From positions 13,126-77,125 of the IMG/VR virus record IMGVR_UViG_3300020576_003018: a stretch of 64,000 bases of DNA; one strand, 5' to 3'. A program made the translations under genes and the position numbers. Below the pieces are notes generated by a model, which saw only the letters and a program-made list of their open reading frames with translations, had not been told where the DNA came from and searched no databases. Position 1 is the stretch's first letter. The number at the start of each line of letters is the position of its first letter. The DNA comes from a virus (Duplodnaviria > Caudoviricetes). Of this stretch, positions 20,061-64,000 are shown one piece after another.

Positions 20061-20390
20061 ATGATGGATGATCTACCCTTTCCGATTGGTTCGCTTGTTA
20101 GACGCAAGACAAGTCCTATTCTAAGTCTGCGAAAAAGGGGCGTTCCAACTTCAGTGCAACAGACTGCTCACGTCTGGGTTTTCTCACGCAGTTTGGAAAA
20201 ACTCGAAATCAACGGATCAAGAACACTGAAATTCATTCAGCCAGTTGTGTTCCTTGGAAAATTCAAGGGGAAAAACCACGAGAGTTTTTGTTTTCTCCTT
20301 CCAGGAGGAGAATATGGCTTGATGTCTGCCCAAGAAAACATTTCTGAGTTGTTTGAGGTAGTTACAGATAACGAAAATGCAATATCCTGA
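20061..20390 (+). CDS. Small beta-barrel array-family protein
   Basis: PIGSLVRR, VVFLG, LLPGGEYG. Confidence 0.6.
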   Translation: MMDDLPFPIGSLVRRKTSPILSLRKRGVPTSVQQTAHVWVFSRSLEKLEINGSRTLKFIQPVVFLGKFKGKNHESFCFLLPGGEYGLMSAQENISELFEVVTDNENAIS

Positions 20391-20793
20391 TCCTGGATAC
20401 AACCACACTCCCGCATACCAAATTTCTGGTATTCCATATGTCACTTCTTCAACAGCAGCAGCGGGACAACCAATTCTGTTGAACTTTCCCTATGTCACTA
20501 AGTTTGTGACTGTTGCTGCAACCGGAGGAGCAACCACTATTGCTTTTACAAGCAATGGTTTGCTAGGCAACAATAAATTCACAGTTCCTTCTGGTCAAAC
20601 ACTGACACTTGAAGTTCGTGTGAAAAAGATGTGGGTTACAGGTTCCACATTCTCTGTTGCTGCTGGACTCACAGGGATTCCAACAGCGAGTATCCCAAAC
20701 CTTACAAGTTCATTTGCTTTCAGCAGTTCAGATCCTTACTTCACTGGAAGTAATGCTTACTCCAACGTCATTGTTTATGACGGCGTTGGCTGA
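20377..20793 (+). CDS. Hypothetical beta-rich protein, possibly virion-associated
   Basis: Ser/Thr/Gly-rich; YQISGIPYVTSS, NFPYVTKFVTV. Confidence 0.6.
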   Translation: MQYPDPGYNHTPAYQISGIPYVTSSTAAAGQPILLNFPYVTKFVTVAATGGATTIAFTSNGLLGNNKFTVPSGQTLTLEVRVKKMWVTGSTFSVAAGLTGIPTASIPNLTSSFAFSSSDPYFTGSNAYSNVIVYDGVG

Positions 20794-20797
20794 TCCG

Positions 20798-21061
20798 TTA
20801 TCTCCCACCCGACTGCATTCTAGCTTTCTCTTTGCTCGCTTCTAGCATTGTTGACACCCAACCGGGCGTCTCCTCTTTGATTTGCTGGAGGACAACTTTT
20901 CCTCCAACAACTCCAGCATGAGCATCGGCGTCATCTCGATACCGATAAATCCCAGCAACCTTCGTTCCCTCCAAAACCACAAAAACATCCCTGCACTCTA
21001 CCGCTGATCCATTCCCATAATTCGATTGACGTTTTCCATATCTGACCATGATCTTATTCAC
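20798..21061 (-). CDS. Hypothetical protein
   Basis: ORF fills the gap; start overlaps the upstream stop. Confidence 0.5.
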   Translation of the reverse strand: MNKIMVRYGKRQSNYGNGSAVECRDVFVVLEGTKVAGIYRYRDDADAHAGVVGGKVVLQQIKEETPGWVSTMLEASKEKARMQSGGR

Positions 21062-21185
21062 CTTTTGTTGTTCGCTCTTGACACGAGAAGGGGCCTTCCA
21101 GGCTTCCGAATTGTTTGGACGACCTGAGACCCGTTAAATTGTTTGCGGGCACTATAAAGCATCCTGAGCCCGTGTAGGATTTTTC

Positions 21186-21214
21186 TTGACCTTGAGACAG
21201 GTGCGTGGTAGATT
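21186..21214 (+). promoter_or_regulatory. Sigma70 promoter
   Basis: TTGACC-17-TAGATT-10 nt-ATG 21225. Confidence 0.7.
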
Positions 21215-21224
21215 CTTCATCATC

Positions 21225-21872
21225 ATGAAGATTTTTCACGCATCTGACCTTCACGCCGACTTACACCCGTTGACCACCATCGACAAAGATGTGGACGTTG
21301 TGGTGTCGTCAGGTGATTTTTTCCCTAACCTTACCAGAGGGAATATTAACATTGAACCCAATTTCCAAAGGGAATGGTTCAAGAAGCACTCGCAAGACAT
21401 CTTCAGGTATCTAGCTGGCCGTCCTACTATTATCGTCAATGGCAACCATGATTACATTTGCTTGGCCGAGATGATGGTAGAACATGGATACGCTGGAAAA
21501 GTTCTTCTCTTGACACCAGACAAGGTTGTTGAGTTTGGTGGGAAACGCTGGGTTGGTCATGGATTCATTCCATACATCTACGGTGATTGGAATGGCGAGT
21601 TGCAACCGCACGATCTTGCTGTTGTTTCAAAACAGTTGTTTCAACATGAGAATGTTGATGTGTTGGTGACGCATGTTCCACCGAAGGGTATTTTGGCAAG
21701 TGAATGGGGTTGCCCTACACTCGCACAATGCTTTGCATATCATCCTGGAGCATCCAGCATCAAACATCACTTCTTTGGTCATGTTCATTCTTCTGGTGGT
21801 GAGACTGCCGAAGTGTTTGGCATAAAGTTCTTCAACTCTGCTTGTATCCCACAAATTGTGAAGATTCCATGA
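21225..21872 (+). CDS. Calcineurin-like metallophosphoesterase
   Basis: SDLH, SSGDF, VNGNHD, LVTHVPP, FFGHVH. Confidence 0.9.
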   Translation: MKIFHASDLHADLHPLTTIDKDVDVVVSSGDFFPNLTRGNINIEPNFQREWFKKHSQDIFRYLAGRPTIIVNGNHDYICLAEMMVEHGYAGKVLLLTPDKVVEFGGKRWVGHGFIPYIYGDWNGELQPHDLAVVSKQLFQHENVDVLVTHVPPKGILASEWGCPTLAQCFAYHPGASSIKHHFFGHVHSSGGETAEVFGIKFFNSACIPQIVKIP

Positions 21873-21893
21873 AAAGAAAACTCGTCATTGCCA

Positions 21894-22257
21894 ATGAAAC
21901 GTTCTTTGATAAATCTTACTTGGCTCAATGATAAAAACATGGAGAAGAACAACTACAAGCTTGTTGATCCTTACCTTGTTGGGTTCCATCCGGATCTTCT
22001 TGCAGAAAATTGGGTGAAGCGAAGTGATACGATCAGACTCTTTGACTATTTTGACCTATCAACCATTTACTTCCCGAAAGGTGCGGTGTTTTTGGTTTAT
22101 GCAACTTTTGATCATGGACTCTTAGAAACCCCCCTACTTGGAAGTAATTGGACCAAACGGCGAAAAACATTCTTACACCGTTCGGTATAACAACGAAACA
22201 GATAAGGAAAAATTCATCTTCATTCCCATCAATGTTTCGGTGGATTCAGAACCATGA
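21894..22257 (+). pseudogene. Array-family ORF split by a frameshift at C6 (22129-22134)
   Basis: Removing one C gives ETPYLEVIGPNGEK... ending in a TGA that overlaps ATG 22254. Confidence 0.55.
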
Positions 22258-22571
22258 CACCAACAACATACGGTTCATTTTCTCCTGGTGATTTGGTGGT
22301 TCCGAATCTGTCAACCAAAGTGTGGAAAAAAGAGATTGCCCATTTGCTTGCTGTGGAATTCTATAGTAAGAATCGTGACAATTGGGCCAACACGCTTATC
22401 AGCTACAAGTACAAACATTATCCGTTCAACTCGATTTTCCTTGTCACAGATTGTTTTCTCACAGGCGACTATCATGGCGAGTATTGGGTTATCGAAACCG
22501 TCTGCCCCGATGGAGCAATTTTGGTCTTTTCGGAAAACTATTTTGAGTTGTTTAAGGAAGCAGCACCATGA
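22254..22571 (+). CDS. Array-family protein, CPDG subfamily
   Basis: PGDLVV, SIFLV, VCPDG. Confidence 0.7.
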   Translation: MTPTTYGSFSPGDLVVPNLSTKVWKKEIAHLLAVEFYSKNRDNWANTLISYKYKHYPFNSIFLVTDCFLTGDYHGEYWVIETVCPDGAILVFSENYFELFKEAAP

Positions 22572-22852
22572 GCAATCACAATTTCAAACCGGGAGATTTG
22601 GTACGCGGAACACCAAACTGTGAAGAAAAGCTGTTTCGGTTTATGGATGCGGAATGTACCGGAACAAGGCTTAATGCGTATACTGTCCGGCAATACCCAG
22701 GAGACTCATTGTTTATTGTCTTGGAATGCCTGTTTGTTTCAAACGCGAAATTTGGGTTACAACTCAACAATTTTTTGGCTGTTCGAGTTGCTTGTCCCGA
22801 TGGAAGAATTGCGATTGCCACACAAGGGTATTTCACAAAGTTTGAGCCATGA
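22568..22852 (+). CDS. Array-family protein, CPDG subfamily
   Basis: PGDLVR, SLFIV, ACPDG. Confidence 0.7.
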   Translation: MSNHNFKPGDLVRGTPNCEEKLFRFMDAECTGTRLNAYTVRQYPGDSLFIVLECLFVSNAKFGLQLNNFLAVRVACPDGRIAIATQGYFTKFEP

Positions 22853-22883
22853 CCAGCAATTCTTTCAGAAGGAAATCAAATCA

Positions 22884-23132
22884 ATGAACAACAGGAATGG
22901 CCGAGCAGTGGTTGGAGATTTGTTGGCACTTGGACACGGACAAAAGGATGTGTTTGATTATTCAACAGCCTCGTTTCGCACCTACCCAGCCAACTCACTG
23001 TTCTTGATTTGTGCGCTGGATGCCAGTTGGGGCAACGAAGCACTCTTACTTTGCCCAGACGGCAATTTAATTCGTGGGGAACTTACCCCTTTCAAAAAAG
23101 CAAAAGATTCCAAAAATGATGAGCAACATTAA
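22884..23132 (+). CDS. Array-family protein, CPDG subfamily
   Basis: VGDLL, SLFLI, LCPDG. Confidence 0.65.
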   Translation: MNNRNGRAVVGDLLALGHGQKDVFDYSTASFRTYPANSLFLICALDASWGNEALLLCPDGNLIRGELTPFKKAKDSKNDEQH

Positions 23133-23487
23133 AGTTGGAGATTTGGTTTGTTTCAAGGATGAGTATGGAAGTCATAACGAACGAGAAGTCCGCATTCTTC
23201 CAAGACCTTCAGATTCTGGCAAGGGTCACTACTGCATCTTCAATTACGTTAACGACAAGTGGATCGTGGTGCCGAGCAGGGAAGGAATTGACCCCGTTGT
23301 TGGGCGCCACGCATTTGATTACTTCCTTATCATTGAAACCCACCCAGCAGAGAACAAGTTCCAAACCAACTTCATTTCCTTGCTTTTTTCAGATGGAAGT
23401 GTGATTTTAGCAAACGCGGATGATCTTGATGAAGAAAGGACGATCCATGCAAATTCTGAGGAAGAACTCGTACAGGAAACCCCCTGA
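23116..23487 (+). CDS. Array-family protein
   Basis: VGDLVCF, YFLII, FSDG. Confidence 0.65.
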   Translation: MMSNIKVGDLVCFKDEYGSHNEREVRILPRPSDSGKGHYCIFNYVNDKWIVVPSREGIDPVVGRHAFDYFLIIETHPAENKFQTNFISLLFSDGSVILANADDLDEERTIHANSEEELVQETP

Positions 23488-23761
23488 AGTCGGACAACTT
23501 GTTCGGTTGCGAGGAGAACTCGATGAAGAGTTCTGGGCCAGGATGGATGGTAGACCTTTCGATCCTGAAAACCCGAAGATGACAACAATTGACTATCGTG
23601 GGCACGGACGGATTTACTTTGGCCAAAACGATCTTTTCGTGCTTCTTGACTCCTATAGCCTTTTTGATAGGGTTATGGCTCTTTTGTTGACTCAGGAGGG
23701 TAAAAAGATTCTGGTTGTTATGAGCGCAGTTGACAGCACTCCCATTCTCATGGTAGAGTAG
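23447..23761 (+). CDS. Array-family protein
   Basis: VGQLVRL, LFVLL, TQEG. Confidence 0.6.
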   Translation: MQILRKNSYRKPPEVGQLVRLRGELDEEFWARMDGRPFDPENPKMTTIDYRGHGRIYFGQNDLFVLLDSYSLFDRVMALLLTQEGKKILVVMSAVDSTPILMVE

Positions 23762-23765
23762 CTTC

Positions 23766-24059
23766 ATGGCAACATCGCTGAAAGAGCCCGAAATCGGCAA
23801 ACTGTATTGGATTCGTCAATTCCCAGAGCCCTTTCTCAACAACTCAACCATCCCGCTGAGTGATTGTTTTGGAAAACAGTTTCGCTTTACACCTAACCTG
23901 GACCCGGGTTTGTGTTGCGGCTCTTTCCTTTTCTTGACACCCGATGGCAAACAGTTTGAATGGTACATCAAGGTTCTCGACAAATCACTCGAATCTGCCA
24001 GCACCTTTCCAATCACGGGACTTTATCTCGAAGAAGTGAAGGATTTAGATGATGAATGA
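23766..24059 (+). CDS. Array-family protein
   Basis: IGKLYW, FLTPDG, LEEV plus acidic tail. Confidence 0.7.
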   Translation: MATSLKEPEIGKLYWIRQFPEPFLNNSTIPLSDCFGKQFRFTPNLDPGLCCGSFLFLTPDGKQFEWYIKVLDKSLESASTFPITGLYLEEVKDLDDE

Positions 24060-24411
24060 TAAGCAAAAAGAAAAGGTTGAGGTTGTTTCAACTGATCCTG
24101 TTCCGGATAAGCTGTACCGTCTCATGAATAGAGGAATGGACAAACGAATCCGAGGTTATCACCCGAAATCAATGCGGTTTGGGCGTTCTTTCATCTTTGA
24201 TGACGAAAATGCTTTTCTTCTTTGCATCCCGCCCAGAAATACGGAAGAGAATAGGCAGTTTTGCCCGACTTTTGTTTGCTCTGACTCCGGTGAAATCTTC
24301 ACTTGGAGTTTGAAGGTACTCCCAGTGAACTATCAACCGAAATCCGGCGAGGAAACTTTCGGATGGAGTTGTTGGTTGGTTGAAGTGGAGTGTGACAAAG
24401 ACAATGAGTGA
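24049..24411 (+). CDS. Array-family protein, FLVSG-like subfamily
   Basis: PDKLYRL, FLLCIP, WLVEV. Confidence 0.7.
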   Translation: MMNDKQKEKVEVVSTDPVPDKLYRLMNRGMDKRIRGYHPKSMRFGRSFIFDDENAFLLCIPPRNTEENRQFCPTFVCSDSGEIFTWSLKVLPVNYQPKSGEETFGWSCWLVEVECDKDNE

Positions 24412-24682
24412 CAACGACAATCACCAACCAATTTCTGGCAAGCTGTACCGTGTGGCGAATTGTGCCTGGAAATCTCTCTCAACTCACGAGGGACCAGTGA
24501 TTGAATTTGATTCCGCAACACAATTTCTTCTTTGTCTTCCCCGAAGAAAAAACTTGCCAGGGTTTGACTTTTTTCTGGTAAGTGGCACCGTTCATATATT
24601 CGCTTGGTTGGGTCCGAAAACAGAGGAGAGCATTTCCGACGTTTGGTTGCAAGAAGTGAAACCGGAGGAAACCGATGGATAA
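24404..24682 (+). CDS. Array-family protein, FLVSG subfamily
   Basis: SGKLYRV, FLLCLP, FLVSG, WLQEV. Confidence 0.7.
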   Translation: MSDNDNHQPISGKLYRVANCAWKSLSTHEGPVIEFDSATQFLLCLPRRKNLPGFDFFLVSGTVHIFAWLGPKTEESISDVWLQEVKPEETDG

Positions 24683-25004
24683 TCGACCCTTTCCAACACC
24701 CGGAAAACTATATCGTCTAATGCCAACAACCACCATACAAATTTTTTCGTTTGTTAGTCTTGACAGGCCATACGGCGATCCCTTCGAAATAGATTCACAG
24801 GTAAATCTATTTGCTTGCTTGCCGAATTTGGAGAACAAGAAAAAAGGGCAGCACTATCAAATGTTTTTGGTCAGCGGCATTGGTAAATTGGTTGCATTTG
24901 GTTTATACGAATCAGAGGTTGTCTTCCCTTTGCGAGTTGGACAGGATCCGAAAAATCCTTTGACCTTTCATTTGGTTGAAGTCGAGGAAGAAGAAGAAGA
25001 ATGA
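24675..25004 (+). CDS. Array-family protein, FLVSG subfamily
   Basis: PGKLYRL, ACLP, FLVSG, EVEEEEE. Confidence 0.7.
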   Translation: MDNRPFPTPGKLYRLMPTTTIQIFSFVSLDRPYGDPFEIDSQVNLFACLPNLENKKKGQHYQMFLVSGIGKLVAFGLYESEVVFPLRVGQDPKNPLTFHLVEVEEEEEE

Positions 25005-25381
25005 GAACAATGGAATGGTTGTTGTGGAACGAAGAGGGAGAAAGAGAATGTTTTCGAACAGAGGAGATGGATAAACAAGCTTTGTTTGAGAAGATTTATG
25101 ATGTTGTTGTAGAGGAAGGTGGAGATGGAGACATGGCTGTCGTGTTTTCTCCCGAAACTCATTGCCATCGAGAAATCGCAAATGATTTTCAAGTGTTTCT
25201 TGAAGAGAAAGACCCAGGTGAGTGGCACCGATGGAACATGAGGGTTGGAAGTGACATTCACTTTTCCCGAGATCAAGAGCGGTTTACGTTTGCTAATGAC
25301 GATCATTTTTGTGAATATGGCGAACAGTTGACAGGGTTCCAACCCGTCTCAAACAAGGTTGTTGTTTATGAATCCCTCTGA
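25001..25381 (+). CDS. Hypothetical acidic protein
   Basis: ATGA-coupled ORF lacking the array motif. Confidence 0.6.
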   Translation: MRTMEWLLWNEEGERECFRTEEMDKQALFEKIYDVVVEEGGDGDMAVVFSPETHCHREIANDFQVFLEEKDPGEWHRWNMRVGSDIHFSRDQERFTFANDDHFCEYGEQLTGFQPVSNKVVVYESL

Positions 25382-25631
25382 GATTTTTGCCACGAATCCA
25401 GTTGTTGGTCGGTTGTACCATGTGCGTGCTAATCCACTTTTACTACCATCAAGTGTGAAAATGGTTGTGGTTTGTTACCTTGACAATGGCGAATATTTGG
25501 CTGCTGGGAGTGGGAAATCAATGACCTATTCCGGTCTCTGTGTTTTCGAACCTGGGGTCGTTGAAAAGAGTGGATACGAAATCCCACACACGATGATTTG
25601 GCTGGAGGAAGTGAAAACGGAGGAAGAGTAG
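25368..25631 (+). CDS. Array-family protein
   Basis: VGRLYHV, WLEEV. Confidence 0.65.
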   Translation: MNPSEIFATNPVVGRLYHVRANPLLLPSSVKMVVVCYLDNGEYLAAGSGKSMTYSGLCVFEPGVVEKSGYEIPHTMIWLEEVKTEEE

Positions 25632-25939
25632 TGAAAACAGAACACAGGCCAGTTCCTGGGAGGCTTTATCGGGTTATGAAATGCCCCGATAGTCACAATG
25701 ATCACATAAAATTGCTTGCTTTTGAGGGACCGGCGCGGATTTATGGGACCGAGTTCATTTTCAATTGGAAGGAGGGCTTCTTTCTTTGCTTGCCTCACAG
25801 AAAAGATTTGCCCGACTGTGACATGTTTTTGGTAAGCGGCACCATCAACACAGTTGTTTGGTATGGTCTTACAACGAAGCCTAGACAGGATTGGCTGTGG
25901 CTAGAGGAGGTTTCTGTTGAAGAAGAAGAAGAAGAATAA
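25631..25939 (+). CDS. Array-family protein, FLVSG subfamily
   Basis: PGRLYRV, FLCLP, FLVSG, WLEEV. Confidence 0.7.
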   Translation: MKTEHRPVPGRLYRVMKCPDSHNDHIKLLAFEGPARIYGTEFIFNWKEGFFLCLPHRKDLPDCDMFLVSGTINTVVWYGLTTKPRQDWLWLEEVSVEEEEEE

Positions 25940-26243
25940 AAATCTTCCCGAAGTTGGAAAGTTGTATCGACTTTTTTGCGAGTCGGACGACGGTGTGAAG
26001 CTTTCTGTGGCTTATGGATTGAATTTGGAGGAGAATCTCCTGGTTTGCATTCCAAACGTTGTTACCAATGGAAGGCCAACGCAATCATTTTTGGTTTCGG
26101 GGACGGGTGAATTTTTTCATTGGTGCTTTGTGGACACGGAACCTGACAAACACCATCAACTGGAAGTGTGGGTCAAAAAATCCATCCATCCCAGTGGCTA
26201 TACAACTTGGCTGGAGGAGGAGGTTGACACCGATGTTGAATAA
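25917..26243 (+). CDS. Array-family protein, FLVSG subfamily
   Basis: VGKLYRL, VCIP, FLVSG, WLEEEV; start uncertain. Confidence 0.65.
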   Translation: MKKKKKNKNLPEVGKLYRLFCESDDGVKLSVAYGLNLEENLLVCIPNVVTNGRPTQSFLVSGTGEFFHWCFVDTEPDKHHQLEVWVKKSIHPSGYTTWLEEEVDTDVE

Positions 26244-26628
26244 GGTCCGGGAACACTTTTGGTTTGTTTATGCAACGAAGGAAAAGGCATTGGAGCAGTA
26301 TGGTCAATTTGTTCACGAACATGAAGACCCATATGTTTGGCTCGCTTATGTGAGTGAATCGGAACACTGGGCTAATAATTGGATTGGCCACAAGAATAAG
26401 ACACATAACAGCAACATTATTGGTCTTTTGGTTCCTGGCGACAATTTTATCGTTTTGGGAAAGGTCACAAGAGCCCACCACGAATCTCTGCGGACTGATA
26501 CAATTGTTCGTGTGTTGTCGGGCAATGGGTTGGTCGGCTGGGTAATCCAGCCTCACACACATGAAGGCAGTTCTTCTTTTTTTGAGGAGATTGAGGTGTC
26601 TGACGACGAGGGCGAGTGGGGGAGTTGA
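26233..26628 (+). CDS. Array-family protein
   Basis: PGDNFIVLG, VLSGNGLVGW, FEEI. Confidence 0.65.
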   Translation: MLNKVREHFWFVYATKEKALEQYGQFVHEHEDPYVWLAYVSESEHWANNWIGHKNKTHNSNIIGLLVPGDNFIVLGKVTRAHHESLRTDTIVRVLSGNGLVGWVIQPHTHEGSSSFFEEIEVSDDEGEWGS

Positions 26629-37770: not shown

Positions 37771-37774
37771 AAGG

Positions 37775-47748: not shown

Positions 47749-47782
47749 ATTTCTCCACCATTACTGTTGGCGCCGCCTTAAA

Positions 47783-48234: not shown

Positions 48235-48274
48235 TTCGTGTTATCGAGTCTGAAGAAGATTTGGTGATTTAGAC

Positions 48275-52587: not shown

Positions 52588-52594
52588 GAGGAAA

Positions 52595-54098: not shown

Positions 54099-54100
54099 AA

Positions 54101-54418: not shown

Positions 54419-54686
54419 ACCAGAATTCAAGTGTGGAGATTTGGTTAGCTTTGCCAAAACTTGTTATGTAGTCAAATACCAGCCAAATTCATGGGGCTGG
54501 CAACATTGGACTGATTATTCCGATCATCTTATCAGTCCAGGGGAGTTTTCCGTTGTGTGCAGCGTTGTTAACGACGTGAGTTTTTACCGAGTTTTGCTCA
54601 TTCATCCCACACAGGGGAAGGTTGTGATGAATTTTGCATCACCATACGGCATGAAACAACTTCTCAAGCACCAGGAAACAGAATGA
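54411..54686 (+). CDS. Array-family protein, PDPW/HPxHG subfamily
   Basis: CGDLV, QPNSW, GEF, HPTQGK. Confidence 0.7.
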   Translation: MSEPEFKCGDLVSFAKTCYVVKYQPNSWGWQHWTDYSDHLISPGEFSVVCSVVNDVSFYRVLLIHPTQGKVVMNFASPYGMKQLLKHQETE

Positions 54687-55021
54687 CAAAGAAGGGTGTT
54701 GGTGAAAAGAAAAAAATGGCGAATTATGAAACCTGGGAGGCAGGAACTCTCCTTGTAACAAAACAACGAATTGTAATCGTGCGTCATTTACCGGATCCTT
54801 GGGATTTCCAATCCAAGAATTTCACCCGCATTTGCCTTAATGAGTCAGAGAATTTTATTCTCATGTCTCCCAACACAGAAGAGGAATATTGTGGGACGTA
54901 CTACCTTGTTTTTAGGATTTTGCACCCAATTCACGGTAGAACGGTTGTATCACTTGACAACAGCGATGGTACCAAGGTCGAAGAATACATCGCACCAGTT
55001 CCAACATTGGAAGGATGTTAG
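54683..55021 (+). CDS. Array-family protein, PDPW/HPxHG subfamily
   Basis: AGTLL, LPDPW, HPIHGR. Confidence 0.7.
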   Translation: MTKKGVGEKKKMANYETWEAGTLLVTKQRIVIVRHLPDPWDFQSKNFTRICLNESENFILMSPNTEEEYCGTYYLVFRILHPIHGRTVVSLDNSDGTKVEEYIAPVPTLEGC

Positions 55022-55060
55022 CGATGATTGATTGTCGTAATGGATCGAAATAATTTTCTG

Positions 55061-55089
55061 TTGCTTTTGAGGCTGGCGTGCTGTAGAGT
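55061..55089 (+). promoter_or_regulatory. Sigma70-like promoter, leaderless
   Basis: TTGCTT-17-TAGAGT-6 nt-ATG 55096. Confidence 0.7.
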
Positions 55090-55095
55090 ATCCTC

Positions 55096-55575
55096 ATGAC
55101 GAATAACGTCCAGCAACAAAAAATTCCCGAGATCGGAACTTTGTTGGAAGTGGCAAATGAGGAATTTGGCAACTGGCTTCCTCAAGGTAGTATTGTTCCC
55201 GGATGGGATTGCTCTGGTGATTTTGAGGATGCGTTGTTCGGTCAGAACTTCTCATACAAAGTTGGTGACAAGGTTGTTTTCATGGGCCTTGCGGTCGAAA
55301 ACGATGAAGGTGGCGATCCGATTTGGTTTCGGGTTCTCCTCCTCGATCCTGCTCGTGGTGAAAAAACTTCCGCTGTGTGTATGCCGTTCCTAGAAGATCT
55401 GTTTCTCTTGCACTTCTGCAAATCCTTTCTTCCCATCCCACCAACAACGCAAGACGATGATGAATACTCAGTCTTGACCTTCCTTTCTGCGTGTTCGGGT
55501 GAAGTTGTTTGTTGTGAACTTCTGCCACAGTTATGGGAAAGCACATTCGAAAGGATTCAAGAAGAAGATGAGTAA
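55096..55575 (+). CDS. Array-family protein, extended
   Basis: IGTLLEV, VGDKVVFMG, LDPARG, FERI. Confidence 0.7.
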   Translation: MTNNVQQQKIPEIGTLLEVANEEFGNWLPQGSIVPGWDCSGDFEDALFGQNFSYKVGDKVVFMGLAVENDEGGDPIWFRVLLLDPARGEKTSAVCMPFLEDLFLLHFCKSFLPIPPTTQDDDEYSVLTFLSACSGEVVCCELLPQLWESTFERIQEEDE

Positions 55576-55870
55576 CAACAGCAGGTTCTTTGACTTTAAG
55601 GTTGGGAAGTTGTATCGTCTCACCCGATATTATTTTTGGGCTGGTAATGACGTTGATTGGAACGACGCTGAAGAAGAAGATCTTCTAGTAAAAGAGGCCA
55701 GGGTTGGCGAAATTGTTGTCTTTATGGGTTTCAAATCATTTGTGTCCTTTGGGAAAAAATATAAGGCTTTGTCATTCATTTCGGCAGATCAAGGTGGTTT
55801 GGTTTACATGGCGCTGCATTCAGATTACTGGGATTCGTACTTTGAAAGGATCCCAGACGATGATCAGTGA
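55568..55870 (+). CDS. Array-family protein, FLSPxHG-like subfamily
   Basis: VGKLYRL, VGEIVVFMG, FISADQG, FERI. Confidence 0.7.
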   Translation: MSNNSRFFDFKVGKLYRLTRYYFWAGNDVDWNDAEEEDLLVKEARVGEIVVFMGFKSFVSFGKKYKALSFISADQGGLVYMALHSDYWDSYFERIPDDDQ

Positions 55871-56105
55871 TTTTAAGATTGGGAAGTTGTATGAAGTCAC
55901 TGCCACATTCTACAATTACAACAATTTCGGAACTTGTTTCCAAGTGGGTGATTTTCTGGTTTATTTGGAAGAAAAGGAGTCTCTGACTCCTGGTGTGATA
56001 GAGTTGATTTTTCTTTCCCCGCAGCACGGCAGAGTTTTTTTCTCCCTCCGCGACCACTCGACTTTGTTTTCGCTCCTTCGAGAAATTCCAGGTGATGATG
56101 AATGA
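55860..56105 (+). CDS. Array-family protein, FLSPxHG subfamily
   Basis: IGKLYEV, VGDFLVYL, FLSPQHG. Confidence 0.7.
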   Translation: MISDFKIGKLYEVTATFYNYNNFGTCFQVGDFLVYLEEKESLTPGVIELIFLSPQHGRVFFSLRDHSTLFSLLREIPGDDE

Positions 56106-56446
56106 CAGAAAACACACAACAGCCTCAAATCCTATTGATTAACAGCAACGACTGCGTTGACACTCTGAATCCAGGCGATTTGTGTGAGTGGGCGGATTAT
56201 CCTTTAAGAGACGCATATTGGGTGACAAAGGAGTCATATCGGCTCTACAATTGTGTAGCTTATATGACAAAAACCAATGTTGCTCGTGTTGGATTTTCCA
56301 CAATTTTTGCGGTTGTTGGTGCTGACTGTTTGGACAGCGGAGGATTGGAACTTACTCTGCTGGACCCGGTTGTCGGGCGATGGTATTTCCGTCAACAATC
56401 CACTCAAGTTGTTTGGGCTCTTAGAAAGGTAGTAGCGGACGAATGA
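56102..56446 (+). CDS. Array-family protein
   Basis: PGDLCEW, IFAVVG, LDPVVG. Confidence 0.65.
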   Translation: MTENTQQPQILLINSNDCVDTLNPGDLCEWADYPLRDAYWVTKESYRLYNCVAYMTKTNVARVGFSTIFAVVGADCLDSGGLELTLLDPVVGRWYFRQQSTQVVWALRKVVADE

Positions 56447-56736
56447 ACAGCGCAGAAAATGAAAAGATGACCGACTTGTTCCCAGGAAAACTTTATGAAC
56501 TCACAACGGGGTGGTTGAGCTTTTATTTCGCTTCTATCGAAAAAGAAGTTGTGATTGGTAAAGGTGAACGTCTGTTGTTTTTGTTTGAGAGTTGTCATGG
56601 TCGTCTTCTCTCCCTTGTTTTCCTAAGCCCAAAACATGGTAAAACTGTTGTGTGCGACTTTGGGATCAGTAAAGGAAAGAACTATCATCCGTCGTTCTTT
56701 GAATTGTTTCAAGAAGTGCAGTGCAATGACGAATAA
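56443..56736 (+). CDS. Array-family protein, FLSPxHG subfamily
   Basis: PGKLYEL, GERLLFL, FLSPKHG. Confidence 0.7.
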   Translation: MNSAENEKMTDLFPGKLYELTTGWLSFYFASIEKEVVIGKGERLLFLFESCHGRLLSLVFLSPKHGKTVVCDFGISKGKNYHPSFFELFQEVQCNDE

Positions 56737-57022
56737 ATCGGATCTTGTTGTGGGCCAGCTTTACCGTTTGTCTAATTTTTTGTCCAATTCTTTGGATCCC
56801 GACGAATACAACCTCGTCTACACACACGGGGGAGGAAAACAATGTTGGTTGAAGGCAGACGAGTTGCTTGTTTTCACGGGCCAAAGAGTCGTCGAAGAAG
56901 ATTACGAGTTGTTTGACGAATACGCATTCCTCTCTCCTGAACATGGGCATGTGGTTGTGATTACGCGCCACAAAAAACCACTTTCTTTCACTCTTGCTGT
57001 AGATGAAGAGAAGAATCCATGA
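56726..57022 (+). CDS. Array-family protein, FLSPxHG subfamily
   Basis: VGQLYRL, DELLVF, FLSPEHG. Confidence 0.7.
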   Translation: MTNKSDLVVGQLYRLSNFLSNSLDPDEYNLVYTHGGGKQCWLKADELLVFTGQRVVEEDYELFDEYAFLSPEHGHVVVITRHKKPLSFTLAVDEEKNP

Positions 57023-57294
57023 TTTTCGATCTTGTTCCTGGGGAGTTGTATGAAACTGTTCACGAACTCCGAGTTAATGTGAATTTGACAACCAATGTTT
57101 TGCTCGAAGAAGGGGATCGAGTTGTCGTTCTTTCACATACTTTTGGTCTGCACAAGAGCCCAATGGCCACCGTGTCGCTCTTGAGCCCTAAGCATGGAAA
57201 AGTCAAGGCTACATTGATTTTTAGTAGCAATATTCTCAAGGGAACAGAAGTGTGGTTCAAAAGGATTTCCACAGAAGAAGAGGAACAAGTATGA
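57019..57294 (+). CDS. Array-family protein, FLSPxHG subfamily
   Basis: PGELYE, GDRVVVL, LLSPKHG. Confidence 0.7.
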   Translation: MIFDLVPGELYETVHELRVNVNLTTNVLLEEGDRVVVLSHTFGLHKSPMATVSLLSPKHGKVKATLIFSSNILKGTEVWFKRISTEEEEQV

Positions 57295-57608
57295 TTACGA
57301 ATTCGGTTTACAAGATCGGTGGTTTGTTTCGGTGTTTGAAAAACGTTCATTATGAACGAGAAGGGCAAACTTCCAGGCTTGGAGTGGTTTTTGGCGGGAT
57401 CAACACCAAACTGTTCAGCAGATCAGCGTGGATTGTTTTTGGGGATTTGTGTGTTCTTCTCAACGTTGACAGGATTGGTGGCAAGTTTTTCTGGCTGCAT
57501 CCAGATCATGGAAAGATCTTTACACGATTCACCGTGGATGATTTTTATGATGGGAGATTGTTCCACGAAACCTGGGAGGAGGTAAAACAGGATGAGATCG
57601 TTGAGTGA
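57291..57608 (+). CDS. Array-family protein, LHPDHG pair
   Basis: IGGLFR, GDLCVLL, FWLHPDHGKI, WEEV. Confidence 0.7.
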   Translation: MITNSVYKIGGLFRCLKNVHYEREGQTSRLGVVFGGINTKLFSRSAWIVFGDLCVLLNVDRIGGKFFWLHPDHGKIFTRFTVDDFYDGRLFHETWEEVKQDEIVE

Positions 57609-57882
57609 GATCAAAGTCGGAAAACTGTATCGTAGCAAAACATTTCTAACGTTCAGCCTGGAAACCAACTCAAAACAAACCAAATATCTCACATTCTTTG
57701 GATATCCAAGTCGTAACAGTGTCGAGCCGGGGACTTTGTGTCTTTTGCTGAGTGTTGAGCCAATCGAGTGCAGGACTTATTAGTTGCACCCAGATCATGG
57801 AAAGATCTCTTGCCCATTTCTTTTGAGCAAGTTTTGGATTGGCTGGGAAGAAGTGAGTGACCTGGATGATCATGCTGAATGA
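57592..57882 (+). pseudogene. Array-family ORF with in-frame TAG at 57781
   Basis: VGKLYR, GTLCLLL, then Y*LHPDHGKI...WEEV, matching the upstream paralog. Confidence 0.7.
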
Positions 57883-57908: not shown

Positions 57909-58127
57909 ATGAGCACCTGTCAATTTAAGCCTGGGGATTTGGTTCGTAGAAAAGAAGACGACATAAGTTTTGGAATCGTTCTCCGGGTTCGAGACACAAA
58001 CATAAACCAGTTCAAGGGTTCTTCATTTGTCTGCGTCCTTGATTCGGATTCAGGAAACCAAATGTGGTTTTTTGAATCCAGGCTGGTTCATGTCGAGGTA
58101 GAAGAAGAAGCGGAAAACAATGAGTAG
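57909..58127 (+). CDS. Array-family KOW-like protein
   Basis: PGDLVRR, FGIVLRV, DSG..MWFF...LVHV. Confidence 0.7.
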   Translation: MSTCQFKPGDLVRRKEDDISFGIVLRVRDTNINQFKGSSFVCVLDSDSGNQMWFFESRLVHVEVEEEAENNE

Positions 58128-58365
58128 CAACAACAGCAGCAGCGGAAAATTTCAGGTTGGAGACTTGGTTGAGATGCAAGTTATCACCTTCAATGAAGAA
58201 TTGAAAAAAGGAGTTGTTATTGATATTGTTTCCAACAATATCAAGTATCCAGGAGAAGATTCGTTCCAAGTTTTGAAGGTTTGCAATCTTGCTGGTAACA
58301 CAACTCAAATCTGGAGTAGATCTCTCAAACTTTTAGCAACAGCAGCAGAGGAATCGAACACATGA
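58120..58365 (+). CDS. Array-family KOW-like protein
   Basis: VGDLVEM, KGVVIDI, LKLL. Confidence 0.7.
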   Translation: MSSNNSSSGKFQVGDLVEMQVITFNEELKKGVVIDIVSNNIKYPGEDSFQVLKVCNLAGNTTQIWSRSLKLLATAAEESNT

Positions 58366-58643
58366 CCAAGCCAAAATTCTTATCTCTCCGAGACTCACAA
58401 ACCCTTTTGACTTTCTTCAAGAAAGACGACTTCTATCCTGGGTTGCTGTTGGAACAAGAGAACGGCGAGCACATTTGCTTGCTCGATTTCTTGTTTGAAG
58501 TGTTTGATGACGAACAAGAGACTCACACTTATCTTTTCTTCTCAGGCATCAAATTGGATGGCTCCAAAAGTCGTTTCTGCATTCAGTTTCAAAAAAGAGT
58601 TTCTGGGTTCTCGTTCCGTGATCCCGACGCATCCTTCCTCTGA
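58362..58643 (+). CDS. Hypothetical protein
   Basis: ATGA-coupled; PGLLL. Confidence 0.55.
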   Translation: MTKPKFLSLRDSQTLLTFFKKDDFYPGLLLEQENGEHICLLDFLFEVFDDEQETHTYLFFSGIKLDGSKSRFCIQFQKRVSGFSFRDPDASFL

Positions 58644-58729
58644 TATCCACAACCCCTCACAAGCCTCAGCAGTGCCACCAAATCTTTTCAACGACACCCA
58701 ATCCATCCAAGATATTTCCCTGTCAGGAT

Positions 58730-58799
58730 AAGCCTCCTGAAGTGATTTGGGGTGTGGGGTGGTTTTGGTGTTGCGTGTTGGGATGAGTGGTGATAGAGT
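58730..58799 (+). promoter_or_regulatory. Degenerate GCATCCTGG motif plus leaderless promoter
   Basis: GCCTCCTGAAGTGATTTGGG; TTGCGT(58771)-17-TAGAGT-6 nt-ATG 58806. Confidence 0.65.
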
Positions 58800-58805
58800 G
58801 TGGGC

Positions 58806-59066
58806 ATGAACACTCATCCATATCGTCTTGCGTGGCAGCCGTCTCCAATTCCTCCCAAGTTGAATCGGTTCAAGTTTTGGAATAGAGTTTCATTGGCCGG
58901 ACTTGTTTTTCATGTTCTTTCCGCGTTTTTACTCTTGGCCTCAATTCCCTTTTACCCTTACCCATCGCAGAACGGTGAACTGTTCCGGCAAATTGCATTT
59001 CTCTTCTTTGTTAGCTTTGCAATCGTTGTTGTTTACTCTGTTGGGAAGATGGAGGATCTTTCATGA
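58806..59066 (+). CDS. Small membrane protein
   Basis: Two hydrophobic segments. Confidence 0.6.
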   Translation: MNTHPYRLAWQPSPIPPKLNRFKFWNRVSLAGLVFHVLSAFLLLASIPFYPYPSQNGELFRQIAFLFFVSFAIVVVYSVGKMEDLS

Positions 59067-59431
59067 AACCTGGGGATTTGGTTGGTTTTGTTCCCAGTGT
59101 ACGCAGTGGATATAAGAAAGAAAGAGGTTTCTTTGAAGTAACGGATGATCAAAACAATGATTTTGTCGCCATTGAAGAAGCGGGGGGAAAGTGGCGGTAT
59201 GTTTTGCTTCCCCCGGATTATTCCCAGGGGTATGACCGACCAAGAGGAAGAATCAACCTTGTAACAGTACACACCGACGCAAAATTCATTTGCATAGATG
59301 TCGGGTTCAACCCAAACCCATGCACTCATTGGTGTGTCTTGTTGGCTGTGGAACATGCTCATATTATTTTCTCAAGCAGTGCCGATGAACTCTTTGAAGT
59401 TCTTGCGGAAAGCAATGTGGAAGAGCAATGA
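59063..59431 (+). CDS. Array-family protein
   Basis: PGDLVGF, FEVL. Confidence 0.65.
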   Translation: MKPGDLVGFVPSVRSGYKKERGFFEVTDDQNNDFVAIEEAGGKWRYVLLPPDYSQGYDRPRGRINLVTVHTDAKFICIDVGFNPNPCTHWCVLLAVEHAHIIFSSSADELFEVLAESNVEEQ

Positions 59432-59826
59432 CCAACGAACCCACAGAAGAGGAAAAGAAGCTGGTTGGAAAGCTAGTTCGGCTCAAGACCGACGAGGATC
59501 ACAACACTTCAAAAGCTCCAGTTATTTCCATTTCCATTCAGGAGGAGTTGAAATGTGATTCGACACTTCCAAGAACTTGGTTCGGTGGAAGGTATGCAAA
59601 ACCAAATGGCAAGACTCAAGCAGAAGCCTTGAAGTTTTTACCCAAACAAACGACCTTGCTGATTGTTGATGTTGTCACTCTTCATGAATGTGAACCACTT
59701 TATGCTGTTGTTGACAACGGGACTGGATCGTTGTATCTCATCAACCGAGACGGCTTTGAACTGGTTCCAGACAAAGAGGGGAAGATTCATGACAAAGAGG
59801 GGAAGATTCATGACAAAGATTGGTGA
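59428..59826 (+). CDS. Array-family protein
   Basis: LVGKLVRL, LLIVDV, NGTG, FELV; DKEGKIH twice. Confidence 0.7.
   Translation: MTNEPTEEEKKLVGKLVRLKTDEDHNTSKAPVISISIQEELKCDSTLPRTWFGGRYAKPNGKTQAEALKFLPKQTTLLIVDVVTLHECEPLYAVVDNGTGSLYLINRDGFELVPDKEGKIHDKEGKIHDKDW
59770..59819. repeat. Perfect 21-bp tandem duplication at a gene junction
   Basis: GACAAAGAGGGGAAGATTCAT x2, duplicating the RBS and ATG. Confidence 0.95.
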
Positions 59827-60136
59827 TTTGGTTTGCCTGAATAATGAACTTGACCTCAGGCATGTCATTAAAAACCCATCAGAAGTTTACCACGTTGATT
59901 CATTGCCAAAATCAGTTTTAGGGAACTATTGGCTTCTGGCTTCAGGTCCAAACAGCGATCATGTTCTCAATGACGAACTTTTTTTGGTTGTTGATTACTG
60001 TCCAAGCCAAAAAAATATCGAAGGAGAACCGTGGTGGATCGTGTTTTCTCCGAAACACGACCTGTTTTTTCCTTTGGTAGAAGGAGAGTTTGAACCGGCG
60101 ACCGGGGAAAGTAATGTTGATGACACAACAGTTTAA
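59810..60136 (+). CDS. Array-family protein, KIGDLV/LVVD subfamily
   Basis: KIGDLV, LFLVVD, WWIVFSPKH. Confidence 0.7.
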   Translation: MTKIGDLVCLNNELDLRHVIKNPSEVYHVDSLPKSVLGNYWLLASGPNSDHVLNDELFLVVDYCPSQKNIEGEPWWIVFSPKHDLFFPLVEGEFEPATGESNVDDTTV

Positions 60137-60434
60137 GATTGGTGATTTGGTTCGAGTGCTGGGCACGACTAGGCTATTCTCAATTCAGAAATGTGATTCA
60201 CCAGGAGGTGTGGTTTCTATACATTCGAACAACAATTGGTCTTTTGCAGCCAATAACAGGAACAGCCATTTCGATTTGATTGACGAGCTGCTTTTGGTGG
60301 TGGATATTTGCAAAACATCTTTTGATTCAACATGGTGGATTGCGCTTTCTCCTACACATAATTTGTGCTTTGCATTACTGGAGAATGAGTTACAGCCAGT
60401 AGACACGAGCGGAAACACCCAAGATGTTGAGTGA
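60120..60434 (+). CDS. Array-family protein, KIGDLV/LVVD subfamily
   Basis: KIGDLV, LLLVVD, WWIALSPTH. Confidence 0.7.
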   Translation: MTQQFKIGDLVRVLGTTRLFSIQKCDSPGGVVSIHSNNNWSFAANNRNSHFDLIDELLLVVDICKTSFDSTWWIALSPTHNLCFALLENELQPVDTSGNTQDVE

Positions 60435-60738
60435 AAAAATCACAATTGGCGATTTGGTTCAATGCACACGAGACCTCTGCCTTAATGAAGTTGTTCAATC
60501 AACGGAACAAAATCGTGGAAAATATCAACTTTCCCAAACCGGAATCTTTTGGGAATATAAACAACATAGCATTGTCCTCCAAGAAAATTCTCTGTTGCTC
60601 ATTATTGATTTGATCCCACATTTCCGCAGCAAAAACGACCACTTGTTCATTTGTTTGGGGGGCAATGGAAAAACAGTGCCGCTGTTCGACAACGAAATCA
60701 CTCTGATACAAAAAAGAAACGGAGAACTTCCTTTATGA
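60424..60738 (+). CDS. Array-family protein, KIGDLV/LVVD subfamily
   Basis: IGDLV, LLLIID, GGNG..PLFDNEITLI. Confidence 0.7.
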   Translation: MLSEKITIGDLVQCTRDLCLNEVVQSTEQNRGKYQLSQTGIFWEYKQHSIVLQENSLLLIIDLIPHFRSKNDHLFICLGGNGKTVPLFDNEITLIQKRNGELPL

Positions 60739-61043
60739 TCAAGATTGGTGATTTGGTTAGAATCTCGGTCACAGTGTACGAAATACGCAGTCACATCGAG
60801 GCATCAACAAACCAAGGCAGTGCCACTTTGCCTCGTTCTCAAAACGGACTTTATTGGTATTACCGCTACGTCCGCCTCTTCCACAAGAAGCCGCGACACA
60901 GCACAAATGCTATTGTTGTTGATTCTGCTGTTCTTGATGATGGACGTAAAATATTTGTCTGTTTAAGCCCAAATGGAGAGTTCAAACCCTTTGTAGAAAC
61001 AGAATTGTCTCTGATCATAAAAGGAAATTGTGACGAGAGTTAG
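60735..61043 (+). CDS. Array-family protein, KIGDLV/LVVD subfamily
   Basis: KIGDLV, AIVVD, LSPNG..PFVETELSLI. Confidence 0.7.
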   Translation: MIKIGDLVRISVTVYEIRSHIEASTNQGSATLPRSQNGLYWYYRYVRLFHKKPRHSTNAIVVDSAVLDDGRKIFVCLSPNGEFKPFVETELSLIIKGNCDES

Positions 61044-62079: not shown

Positions 62080-62388
62080 ATGACCGATGACAACAGCAAT
62101 CACTTGAAGCGGTGGTGGAATTCTTTTGAGCCGGGGGATTTGGTTCGTCAGAAGAAAGAGTTTATTGGAACTCCTCTTCGTTTTTGGGCAAGAATGGCTT
62201 CTATGGGTATTTTTGAATTTCCTTCGGACACATTTTTTCTTTGTTTGGAAGTGGTAGAAGATGGTGAAGTGTGGAATCTGCTTGCGCCGGGAGGTGAGCA
62301 GGTGTTATGCCGTTATCACGCCCTCGAATTGGTAAGGTTCGCCAGCGAGAAAGATGAAGAGGAAACCGATGACAAAGAATGTGTTTGA
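62080..62388 (+). CDS. Array-family protein
   Basis: PGDLVR, FFLCLE, LAPGG, LELV. Confidence 0.7.
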   Translation: MTDDNSNHLKRWWNSFEPGDLVRQKKEFIGTPLRFWARMASMGIFEFPSDTFFLCLEVVEDGEVWNLLAPGGEQVLCRYHALELVRFASEKDEEETDDKECV

Positions 62389-62620
62389 GGCTGGTAACTT
62401 GATCTTTGGGAAAAACAGTATGGGAGCAAGAGTGTATACTGCGATGAAAGGATTGTCCGGGGGCAAAACGAAGTGGTATTTTGATGCCACACACACACAC
62501 CTCCCTTGCCGCCATCCAGTTGTGTTTCTTGATAAAATCCAAGACGGTTTTGGTCGCAACTTTCTCAGAGTCATTGGACCAGACGGCATTTGTTATGTCA
62601 GGAAGGAAGCTTTCTTTTGA
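62369..62620 (+). CDS. Array-family protein
   Basis: AGNLI, VVFLD, VIGPDG. Confidence 0.65.
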   Translation: MTKNVFEAGNLIFGKNSMGARVYTAMKGLSGGKTKWYFDATHTHLPCRHPVVFLDKIQDGFGRNFLRVIGPDGICYVRKEAFF

Positions 62621-62919
62621 CAGAGACAGAGTATGATGATTCTTTTTATGGTATTCACCCAAAACAGATTGTTCCAGGAACGCTTTTTGTCAGCCGTGAT
62701 CCATCAATCCGTGCGAACCTTTTAGTTTTGGGTGGTGTGGATTGGGATTATAGGGATGCAGGCTATGGCAGGGTTGAGTTTTTGGTGTTCTTCTTTGGTT
62801 TGCATAGTCAAACTGGCAAATCAATGCAATGCCGCGTAAATGCAATAGAAGATTCATACAATGGCAGAATCAATTGGATCAACTACGATATCCTACTTCC
62901 AACTGGGAACGATCCATGA
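62590..62919 (+). CDS. Array-family protein
   Basis: VPGTLF, LLVLG, ILLP; start uncertain. Confidence 0.6.
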   Translation: MLCQEGSFLLTETEYDDSFYGIHPKQIVPGTLFVSRDPSIRANLLVLGGVDWDYRDAGYGRVEFLVFFFGLHSQTGKSMQCRVNAIEDSYNGRINWINYDILLPTGNDP

Positions 62920-63221
62920 CCATCTCTCACAACTCCAAAGACATCGTTCCTGGAGCATTGATTGTTCTGGCAACCACAAAGGAAATCATCTGTCTCGTTC
63001 TGGGCGAAGTAGAAACTGCACAGATGAATGATACCGTCCAAGCACAATTGACAACCTCATCATCCTCTATATTGCTAGCGTATTGCGATGCCTCAACCAG
63101 CTTCATTGGATTGAGTGCCAAATCCGGGGTAAAGAACAAGTTTTATTTGCGAAGCAACAAAAACAGGGTTTTTGACTTTTTGATTTATTCCCCAGACCAT
63201 GATCAGGAAAACTCAGAGTGA
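62916..63221 (+). CDS. Array-family protein
   Basis: VPGALIV, CLVLG. Confidence 0.65.
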   Translation: MTISHNSKDIVPGALIVLATTKEIICLVLGEVETAQMNDTVQAQLTTSSSSILLAYCDASTSFIGLSAKSGVKNKFYLRSNKNRVFDFLIYSPDHDQENSE

Positions 63222-63442
63222 CAACACTAGAAGATCTCAAAAACATTGCACCTGGATCGCTAGTGATTTTTGGGGGTGAGCCCAATCATGTTGCTCTTGT
63301 GCTTGGATGGAGCAGATTCAAAGGCTACTCTGCGGGTTATGTTGTTCTTTGGGGTAGTGGACGTGTTATGGAAATTTTTTTCTGGCCCGATGAAGCTGGG
63401 CATGTTACTATCATCCCACCCAACCCCGACACAGAAGACTAG
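63218..63442 (+). CDS. Array-family protein
   Basis: APGSLVI, ALVLGW, WGSG, IIPP. Confidence 0.65.
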   Translation: MTTLEDLKNIAPGSLVIFGGEPNHVALVLGWSRFKGYSAGYVVLWGSGRVMEIFFWPDEAGHVTIIPPNPDTED

Positions 63443-63451
63443 AAACACCAA

Positions 63452-63691
63452 ATGAATTTTCAAGACGTGAAAGCTTTGTACCCCGTTGGAACCATGCTGA
63501 TGTATCACTCCACGAACACGAACAGATTTTATGACAGTGATCTGATTCTTTCTTGGTGCGAGACTTATGAGACTGCGGAGGTCTTGACTTCCAATGGAAA
63601 AATCAGGACTTTTGGTTATTTGTCAGTTCATAGAAGCACTTTGTGGCCAAACACTCAGATTGTTCTTCCGCCATCAACCACAGAGGAGTGA
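63452..63691 (+). CDS. Array-family protein
   Basis: YPVGTML, LILSW, VLTSNG, IVLPP. Confidence 0.65.
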   Translation: MNFQDVKALYPVGTMLMYHSTNTNRFYDSDLILSWCETYETAEVLTSNGKIRTFGYLSVHRSTLWPNTQIVLPPSTTEE

Positions 63692-63693
63692 TT

Positions 63694-63897
63694 ATGACAA
63701 AGGATTAGTTTCCTGTTGGGACATTGTTGTCTTCTGATTATTGGTCAATTTTGATTCTTGCTTGGAGTGACGATGGGAAGCGGGCAACCGTGTTGTTCGA
63801 GGATGGTGAAATCCATAACCGCAGAGACCTAACAATCAAGGCACATGCTGCATTACACAATGTAATCATTCTTCTTCCAGCGGAGCAACAACCATGA
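63694..63897 (+). pseudogene. Array-family ORF with in-frame TAG at codon 5
   Basis: MTKD*FPVGTLL..LILAW..VLFEDG..IILLP, parallel to 63452. Confidence 0.65.
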
Positions 63898-64000
63898 CTG
63901 ATCAAAAATCTGAATCTACAAATGAGAAATTTCCTCCCGGAACACTGTTTTTTAGCACGCATACTGGCCTTTCTTTCGTGGTTGTGAGTTGGAAGGAAAC
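63894..64000 (+). CDS. Array-family protein, truncated by the window end
   Basis: KFPPGTLFF, FVVVSW. Confidence 0.55.
   Translation, partial: MTDQKSESTNEKFPPGTLFFSTHTGLSFVVVSWKE

Follow-up and report, generated by a model that had tools for sequence, protein, structure and literature searches.

The window analyzed here comprises 64,000 nucleotides at the right end of a single virus contig of 77,125 bp (IMG/VR record IMGVR_UViG_3300020576_003018, positions 13,126 to 77,125). From about 20 kb to the contig end, nearly all genes are small, tightly packed and located on the plus strand; stop codons and next start codons mostly overlap by 1 to 17 nt. About 60 to 65 of these genes are supported members of a single family, and about 72 when genes recognized only by a motif are counted. 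This array is probably a birth-and-death multigene family which lies in the accessory arm of an uncultured jumbo myovirus and encodes binder-like proteins. What is novel is a sequence-orphan family that is exceptionally large and has a turnover mechanism open to measurement; it has no sequence-detectable relatives outside its clade, yet is confidently predicted as a classic binding module.

Members and distribution of the family

Pairwise phmmer comparison of the small genes resolved subfamilies only (one of 13 members, two of five and several pairs), and an iterated profile merged these into 57 genes, while 0 to 2 of 882 decoys, shuffled or reversed, passed. When all stop-to-stop frames were scanned, the plus strand gave 61 profile matches at E ≤ 0.01 and the minus strand none. 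A stricter iterative search, pooled over the window and three relatives, retained 54 to 56 window members and passed none of 1378 minus-strand and none of 1270 shuffled decoys. Eight further members were obtained by local profile–profile comparison (hhalign) with the candidates' orthologues at probabilities of 59–97%, as compared to ≤2% for enzymes and other controls. Additionally, the motif GxL[VYFLIMC] was found within the first 35 residues of 67 of the 95 small genes, in 7.0 ± 2.6 genes after shuffling and in 2 of 43 other genes; about 23 small genes of the region showed neither profile nor motif signal.

An earlier note on this DNA had claimed about 80 paralogs. The tandem family is real, but this number is somewhat too high. 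The blocks of small plus-strand genes lie where the note had placed them, at 20–26.6, 32.5–33.3, 35.6–38.0, 44.4–46.6 and 47.8–63.4 kb, and a shared hidden Markov model could be built as it had suggested: the iterative profile recovers 54 to 61 genes without passing decoys in the strict and frame scans. A 256-residue gene (41230–42000) was discarded as a carrier of the family domain; its match was circular, the gene having been trained into the profile, and disappeared in the pooled search. Stop-codon reassignment as the cause of the short reading frames was rejected as well, neighbours mostly overlapping as ATGA in differing frames. Members fused to known domains were not found.

Neither Pfam nor PHROGs matched any member when 10 and then 55 members were scanned. 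None of the 55 reached the Pfam gathering score of KOW (PF00467), the nearest being KOWx_SPT5 with an E value of 0.15 for one member, and none matched SH3_15 (PF18346, the Mind bomb SH3 repeat). The only link to SH3_15 is indirect and runs via the N-terminal motif of protein P0014; the family profile weakly matches a 905-residue repeat protein in a region called SH3_15/KOW by Pfam. Among PDB sequences the profile had no significant match (best E 0.022, EIF1AD).

Within 1.84 billion protein representatives, only 40 proteins matched the profile at E ≤ 0.001. Eleven of them were the window's own, and most others look like orthologues from related uncultured phages, as judged by their N-terminal sequences; matches to P0001 (fn3-repeat) and P0023 (low-complexity) in the large profile search were spurious. 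At E ≤ 0.01, the profile matched 26 places in G001, a 241-kb relative collinear with the window, and 25 places in its sister G002, and none in the nearest known phages immuto, Mel-JY01 and LR756508. Apparently, the family is nearly confined to this clade among the proteins searched. An unrelated phage contig, L016 (Logan SRR22388068, 18.9 kb), carries about 45 tandem small genes. Of these, 4 reach E ≤ 0.001 with the profile and 12 reach E ≤ 0.1; the opposite strand gives no match. Since this contig has its own run of small genes with several matches, the superfamily probably extends beyond the reach of the profile. L016 also contains a Band_7 gene and a CCA-adding-type nucleotidyltransferase.

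Predicted fold and evolution of the copies

The family gene products consist of 65 to 160 residues and are predicted to form mostly one small barrel each. Their profile consensus reads l.iGdLYrv..W..v.L..gd.FVVL....FL.p..G.iv...LeeV..eeee. The scaffold comprises an N-terminal GxL strand, a strand of GD followed by hydrophobic residues, an L-P-x-x-G hairpin and, at the end, an L-E-E-V strand; inserts occur at four profile positions (after 27, 33, 54 and 75) and reach lengths of 8 to 23 residues. The layout described in the earlier note was recovered by the profile, and the acidic tail which it had reported is real: the charge of the last 10 residues is −2.34 in the family and −0.79 in non-family small genes.

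AlphaFold models were made of two members which belong to different subfamilies and are 15% identical, with alignments of paralogues as input. The model of 54405–54683 reached a predicted local distance difference test score (pLDDT) of 89.7 and a predicted template modelling score (pTM) of 0.79; the model of 25631–25936 reached a pLDDT of 83.7 and a pTM of 0.75. Both are all-beta with 6 to 7 strands, and their top 50 structural neighbours are nearly all SH3, Tudor, KOW, PsaE, FeoA or SH3b domains. An exhaustive aligner returned SH3-class domains only; Foldseek searches of PDB and BFVD gave nothing below an E value of 0.001. The top match of the 54405 model was the integron cassette protein 3g1j (Z 7.1, root-mean-square deviation 2.7 over 69 residues), with further matches to RecD2/Pif1 SH3, bacterial SH3b, PsaE, NusG KOW, UvrD/PcrA Tudor and EF-P; FeoA ranked 49th. 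For the 25631 model, FeoA (6e55, Z 5.3) came first, then Tudor, CdnL/CarD, RecD2 SH3 and KOW. Furthermore, an Atlas model of the 54405 protein adjoins RecD2-type helicase SH3 domains. These results support the SH3/KOW-like small barrel which the note had predicted; they do not support assignment to a named family.

Identity between paralogues averages 16.5% and does not exceed 44%. Neighbouring copies are more alike than distant ones (rho −0.15, permutation p 0.001), the nearest paralogue of 23 of 54 members lies within two positions (about 4 expected), and 42 of the 54 resemble a syntenic orthologue in G001 more closely than any paralogue. Because identity is low, neighbours resemble each other and orthologues are syntenic, most duplications are judged old and local, i.e. 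tandem.

Most larger non-family genes are 75–98% identical to their counterparts in G001, family genes mostly 30–79%, and about 15 array genes of the window are without orthologue in G001 or G002. Pooled between G001 and G002, the ratio of nonsynonymous to synonymous substitution rates (dN/dS) was 0.37 for 46 family genes, 0.24 for small neighbours and 0.14 for large neighbours. Inside the family genes, conserved columns had a value of 0.22, variable columns one of 0.51 and inserts one of 0.43. Selection is purifying but relaxed, about twice as relaxed as in neighbouring genes, with no indication of pervasive positive selection, and these are real, constrained coding genes because dN/dS is as low as 0.37, and 0.22 in scaffold columns. 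The contrast between a kept scaffold and variable loops, claimed before, is borne out by the same values together with the four insert positions.

Comparison of the arrays of G001 and G002 revealed about 12 gene-sized insertions or deletions, 8 to 9 of them involving family genes. The C-terminal W[IF]EEV of two adjacent copies, with an exact repeat of 10 nt, is the site of one junction; two others lie at ELTLIQ and at an 11-nt repeat, and another begins precisely at GG|LY. These junctions support unequal recombination at motifs common to the copies. The array between the anchor genes measures 26.9, 26.0 and 23.6 kb in three phages; since these lengths are alike, the array is stably retained in the clade, with turnover on a local scale. 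Furthermore, G001 and G002 (L005–L011) are mosaic, with single array genes of 69–79% DNA identity beside neighbours of mostly 94–100%, which suggests that co-circulating phages recombine and thereby replace alleles. Three family genes contain in-frame tandem duplications with 98–100% match (36844–36916, 33 nt; 37537–37632, 42 nt; 59770–59819, 21 nt), and a fourth of 12 nt lies in a family gene at 53156–53180; in the rest of the window just one other perfect tandem repeat was found. These duplications may be recent slippage or assembly artefacts. The gene accordion proposed in the note therefore holds in part: tandem duplication and ongoing gain and loss of copies are found, with copy-number differences and motif junctions between close phages, but recent, near-identical copies are not.

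Expression and proposed function

For 48 of 56 members, the following gene begins no more than 12 nt away, the commonest arrangement being an ATGA overlap, and since starts mostly overlap the preceding stops, the sequence suggests that the array genes are translationally coupled. The pattern TAGAGT-N6-ATG occurs 8 times in the window, with 0.2 matches expected. Six sites are on the plus strand (23754, 34882, 38028, 46600, 55084 and 58794, immediately at the gene starts 23766, 34894, 38040, 46612, 55096 and 58806) and two on the minus strand (3848–3862 and 20986–21000). TTGAC is located 17 to 18 nt upstream of most of them, and the full pattern has 5 matches as compared to 0.46 expected. These sites look like candidate sigma-70-type promoters of leaderless mRNAs, which would divide the array into transcription units. 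A T4-type late promoter motif, TATAAATA, is absent, and a terminator scan was not above chance; we infer early or middle expression of the array. Additionally, a conserved element of about 100 nt was found at 45215–45313, 51866–51964 and 61979–62077, and in weaker form at 21075–21173. It ends in the 15-mer GCATCCTGGAGCGAT, three exact copies of which lie just upstream of the gene starts 45332, 51972 and 62080; with up to 3 mismatches, there are 8 matches as compared to 1.2 expected.

The birth-and-death family would work as follows. Ancient tandem duplication gave rise to the copies of one SH3-like barrel gene, most of which are kept as orthologues, and recombination between short motifs common to neighbouring copies would add or remove whole copies. 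The genes would be translationally coupled and read from sigma-70-like promoters. Each copy would present a different loop surface on one barrel, directed toward host or phage macromolecules.

In classical SH3 domains, the ligand site is flanked by the RT and n-Src loops. The variable inserts, whose positions are known in the profile, might correspond to these two loops. Judged from the predicted fold, the proteins might be small intracellular binders for host takeover or counter-defence, a functional step that we take tentatively. If the copies turn out to bind host proteins specifically, the array would amount to a natural collection of tiny inhibitors and would also be a model for the building and reshuffling of accessory repertoires in large phages. 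An unlikely extension is that the array constitutes an inherited stock of SH3-like binders which serve as decoys for, or inhibit, host defence or core machinery, and that the motifs at the two ends of each gene double as recombination sites. If true, phage populations would swap, add and drop whole binders as cassettes, which would be an undescribed modular counter-defence library.

Several observations weigh against parts of this account. The likeness in fold is class-level only, with Z ≤ 7.1 and nothing below E 0.001 in Foldseek. No part of the genes had a dN/dS above 1 that would support an arms race. Motif-level junctions were clear at only about 4 of the 10 insertions or deletions examined, and a generic scan for the sigma-70 consensus was, as a whole, not above chance. 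Finally, the tail charge is −2.52 when the next gene starts within 12 nt and −1.25 otherwise, with the same trend in both groups; because acidity increases with a nearby start, part of this tail may reflect the purine-rich ribosome-binding sequence of the following gene.

It appears unlikely that the array encodes RNA-binding regulators of GoF type, which would tune how stable certain phage or host transcripts are or how they are translated. The T4 GoF family also consists of small early proteins which are non-essential and have a five-stranded barrel at the N terminus (PMC12152347). The nearest solved structures of that family are FeoA-type SH3 domains, FeoA being the top match of the 25631 model as well, and KOW and Tudor domains are among the structural matches. 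However, sequence kinship was not found: the family profile had no match in the T4 genome at E ≤ 1, and hhalign comparison with GoF and MotB.1 gave a probability of 0.2%. Moreover, the mean net charge of the family proteins is −3.8, which is unusual for RNA binders, and GoF itself affects RNA only in mutant form.

It is quite doubtful that the array is largely dispensable DNA, in which duplicates are kept by recombination and weak selection and most copies are without specific function. Such a view would fit purifying selection relaxed in comparison to the neighbours, the frequent loss of whole copies between sister phages, one truncated copy (57592–57783) and the three copies with in-frame tandem duplications. 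It conflicts with the dN/dS of 0.37 overall and 0.22 in scaffold columns, with the retention of 42 of 54 copies as syntenic orthologues and with array lengths that are alike in three phages (23.6–26.9 kb).

That the proteins are virion or capsid-internal components, e.g. decoration or ejected proteins, is very unlikely. Genes for a baseplate wedge protein and for a late sigma factor do lie upstream of the array on the contig, but the array is separate from these genes (L001) and on the opposite strand, sits among genes of nucleotide and RNA metabolism (MnmA, deaminase, RNA ligase), and has sigma-70-like promoter motifs and no T4-type late motif. Programmed diversification, by retroelement-guided or otherwise targeted hypermutation of the loops, is highly improbable: loops are far more variable than the scaffold and three members contain short in-frame duplications, but the incomplete genomes G000, G001 (241 kb) and G002 yielded no reverse transcriptase (PF00078; control genomes matched), long near-identical pairs of template and variable repeats were not found, dN/dS of the loops is 0.43–0.51, and orthologous loops are conserved between the sister phages. 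The dedicated diversification system suggested in the note is not supported, for these reasons and because the copies are ancient, with closer orthologues than paralogues in 42 of 54 cases.

Gene map, source phage and known systems

All blocks of the array are on the plus strand. Block 1 (20064..26628) holds 12 family genes with profile matches: 20064–20390, 22254–22571, 22568–22852, 23447–23761, 23766–24059, 24049–24411, 24380–24682, 24675–25004, 25368–25631, 25631–25939, 25917–26243 and 26233–26628. The gene 25368–25631 was detected by the lenient scan only, the genes starting at 22568 and 23447 reached 91–95% in hhalign, and unrelated genes are interspersed at 20377–20793 and 21225–21872. 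Block 2 (32488..33300) consists of three genes found by the profile, 32488–32784 (weak), 32774–33049 and 33046–33300. Eight family genes, identified by profile and profile–profile comparison, constitute block 3 (35639..38008): 35639–35911, 35908–36177, 36174–36407, 36404–36682, 36666–37004, 36991–37293, 37516–37770 and 37775–38008 (profile–profile only); 37280–37519 is a motif-only gene. Block 4 (44408..46580) has six family genes matching the profile, 44408–44728, 44725–45015, 45002–45295 (hhalign 91.5%), 45332–45670, 45652–45960 and 46269–46580 (hhalign 97%), and the motif-only gene 45979–46272.

Block 5 is the longest. Its first part, 5a (47741..50603), includes 48591–48899, 48918–49241, 49278–49712, 49709–50338, with a strong first domain and a borderline second match (E 0.062), and 50313–50603 (profile–profile 70%), together with the motif-only genes 47741–48046 and 48275–48598. 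The densest run, 5b (52303..57783), comprises 18 genes identified by the profile and holds the pairwise cluster of 13: 52303–52587, 52595–52879, 52872–53228, 53221–53532, 53522–53824, 53817–54098, 54101–54418, 54405–54686, 54683–55021, 55096–55575, 55568–55870, 55860–56105, 56102–56446 (profile–profile 59%), 56443–56736, 56726–57022, 57019–57294, 57291–57608 and 57592–57783. The last is the truncated copy, which encodes 63 residues covering only profile positions 3–54, is followed by a gap of 125 nt and is without orthologue in the relatives. Eight genes in 5c (57909..61043) match the profile, namely 57909–58127, 58120–58365, 59063–59431, 59428–59826, 59810–60136, 60114–60434, 60424–60738 and 60735–61043 (lenient scan only); an unrelated membrane-like gene is located at 58806–59066. 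In 5d (62080..63442), 62080–62388 and 62916–63221 (lenient scan only) are supported, and 62354–62620, 62590–62919 and 63218–63442 are motif-only genes. The contig ends at 64000, and the array carries on in G001.

Several other genes lie between or within the blocks. Between blocks lie genes for a protein of pentapeptide repeats, for a GGACT-like gamma-glutamyl cyclotransferase carrying a fused Cys-rich region at its N terminus, and for a member of the amidoligase family (26768–28111, 28150–29019, 42753–44216). The region 33785–35614 contains a full-length MnmA-like tRNA 2-thiouridylase near a putative dCMP-deaminase-like gene, assigned by reading its sequence, and 46612–47748 encodes a T4 Rnl1-type RNA ligase inside the array region. 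Identity to G001 is 95–96% for MnmA as well as for the RNA ligase's C-terminal half. Determination of the host from MnmA failed, the closest bacterial MnmA being just 38% identical. Genes for tRNAs were not found in the window.

The left end of the contig, upstream of the array, carries the late sigma factor and the baseplate wedge gene (gp6 type). The latter is 31% identical to Flavobacterium phage immuto and 28% to Microcystis phage Mel-JY01, its nearest named phages, and an uncultured phage of 484 kb likewise reaches 28%. When the window was compared with 50,697 phage records by megablast, no matches were obtained. The window is collinear with G001, the longest relative of the clade, with G002 and with an 8-kb contig (L002); G001 and G002 share 90–99% DNA identity, about 95% overall. 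CheckV completeness was 21% for the window contig and 66% for G001. Extrapolating from these estimates, the source is probably an uncultured jumbo myovirus with a genome well above 300 kb. A glycan/nucleotide-sugar cluster on the minus strand (117–12215) encodes two glycosyltransferases, a UDP-glucose dehydrogenase, an epimerase and a dehydrogenase; extensive clusters like this one are described mainly from cyanophage-type jumbo phages (Iyer et al., PMC7824862).

A literature search for phage arrays of SH3-like paralogues found nothing relevant. The predicted topology is shared with KOW, Mind bomb SH3, the Tudor domain of UvrD-CarD, RecD2-Pif1 SH3 and FeoA, and the GDxV start of the family is KOW-like; unlike KOW, PF18346 and their kin, however, no member reaches any Pfam threshold, and the Z scores of 5–7 indicate likeness at class level only. 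In the gene accordions of poxviruses, e.g. the amplification of K3L, tandem copy number shifts by recombination, and the copies are recent, near-identical and transient. Common to both systems is a change in tandem copy number of a viral accessory gene by recombination between repeats, whereas here mean identity is low and most copies predate the split between the related phages.

T4 GoF and MotB.1 as well as Frd.2 are non-essential proteins with a bent five-stranded SH3/LSm-type barrel which have diverged beyond recognition by BLAST (PMC12152347, 2025). They resemble the present family as small phage proteins of the SH3-type barrel class. Their own nearest solved structures are FeoA-type SH3 folds, whereas FeoA ranks first for one of the two models here and 49th for the other. 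They are three dispersed copies, each with an extra C-terminal domain, as compared to about 60 tandem and mostly single-domain copies here. Iyer et al. (2021, PMC7824862), who surveyed 224 jumbo phages, called a lineage-specific zinc-ribbon expansion of about 35 copies in Bacillus phage G unprecedented. In both cases one small domain was amplified in a jumbo phage and its function guessed from the fold; the folds differ, and the present family, with at least 54 copies, is larger than the expansion called unprecedented in 2021. The closest published family is thus T4 GoF/MotB.1/Frd.2, and the closest published phenomenon is the zinc-ribbon expansion of phage G.

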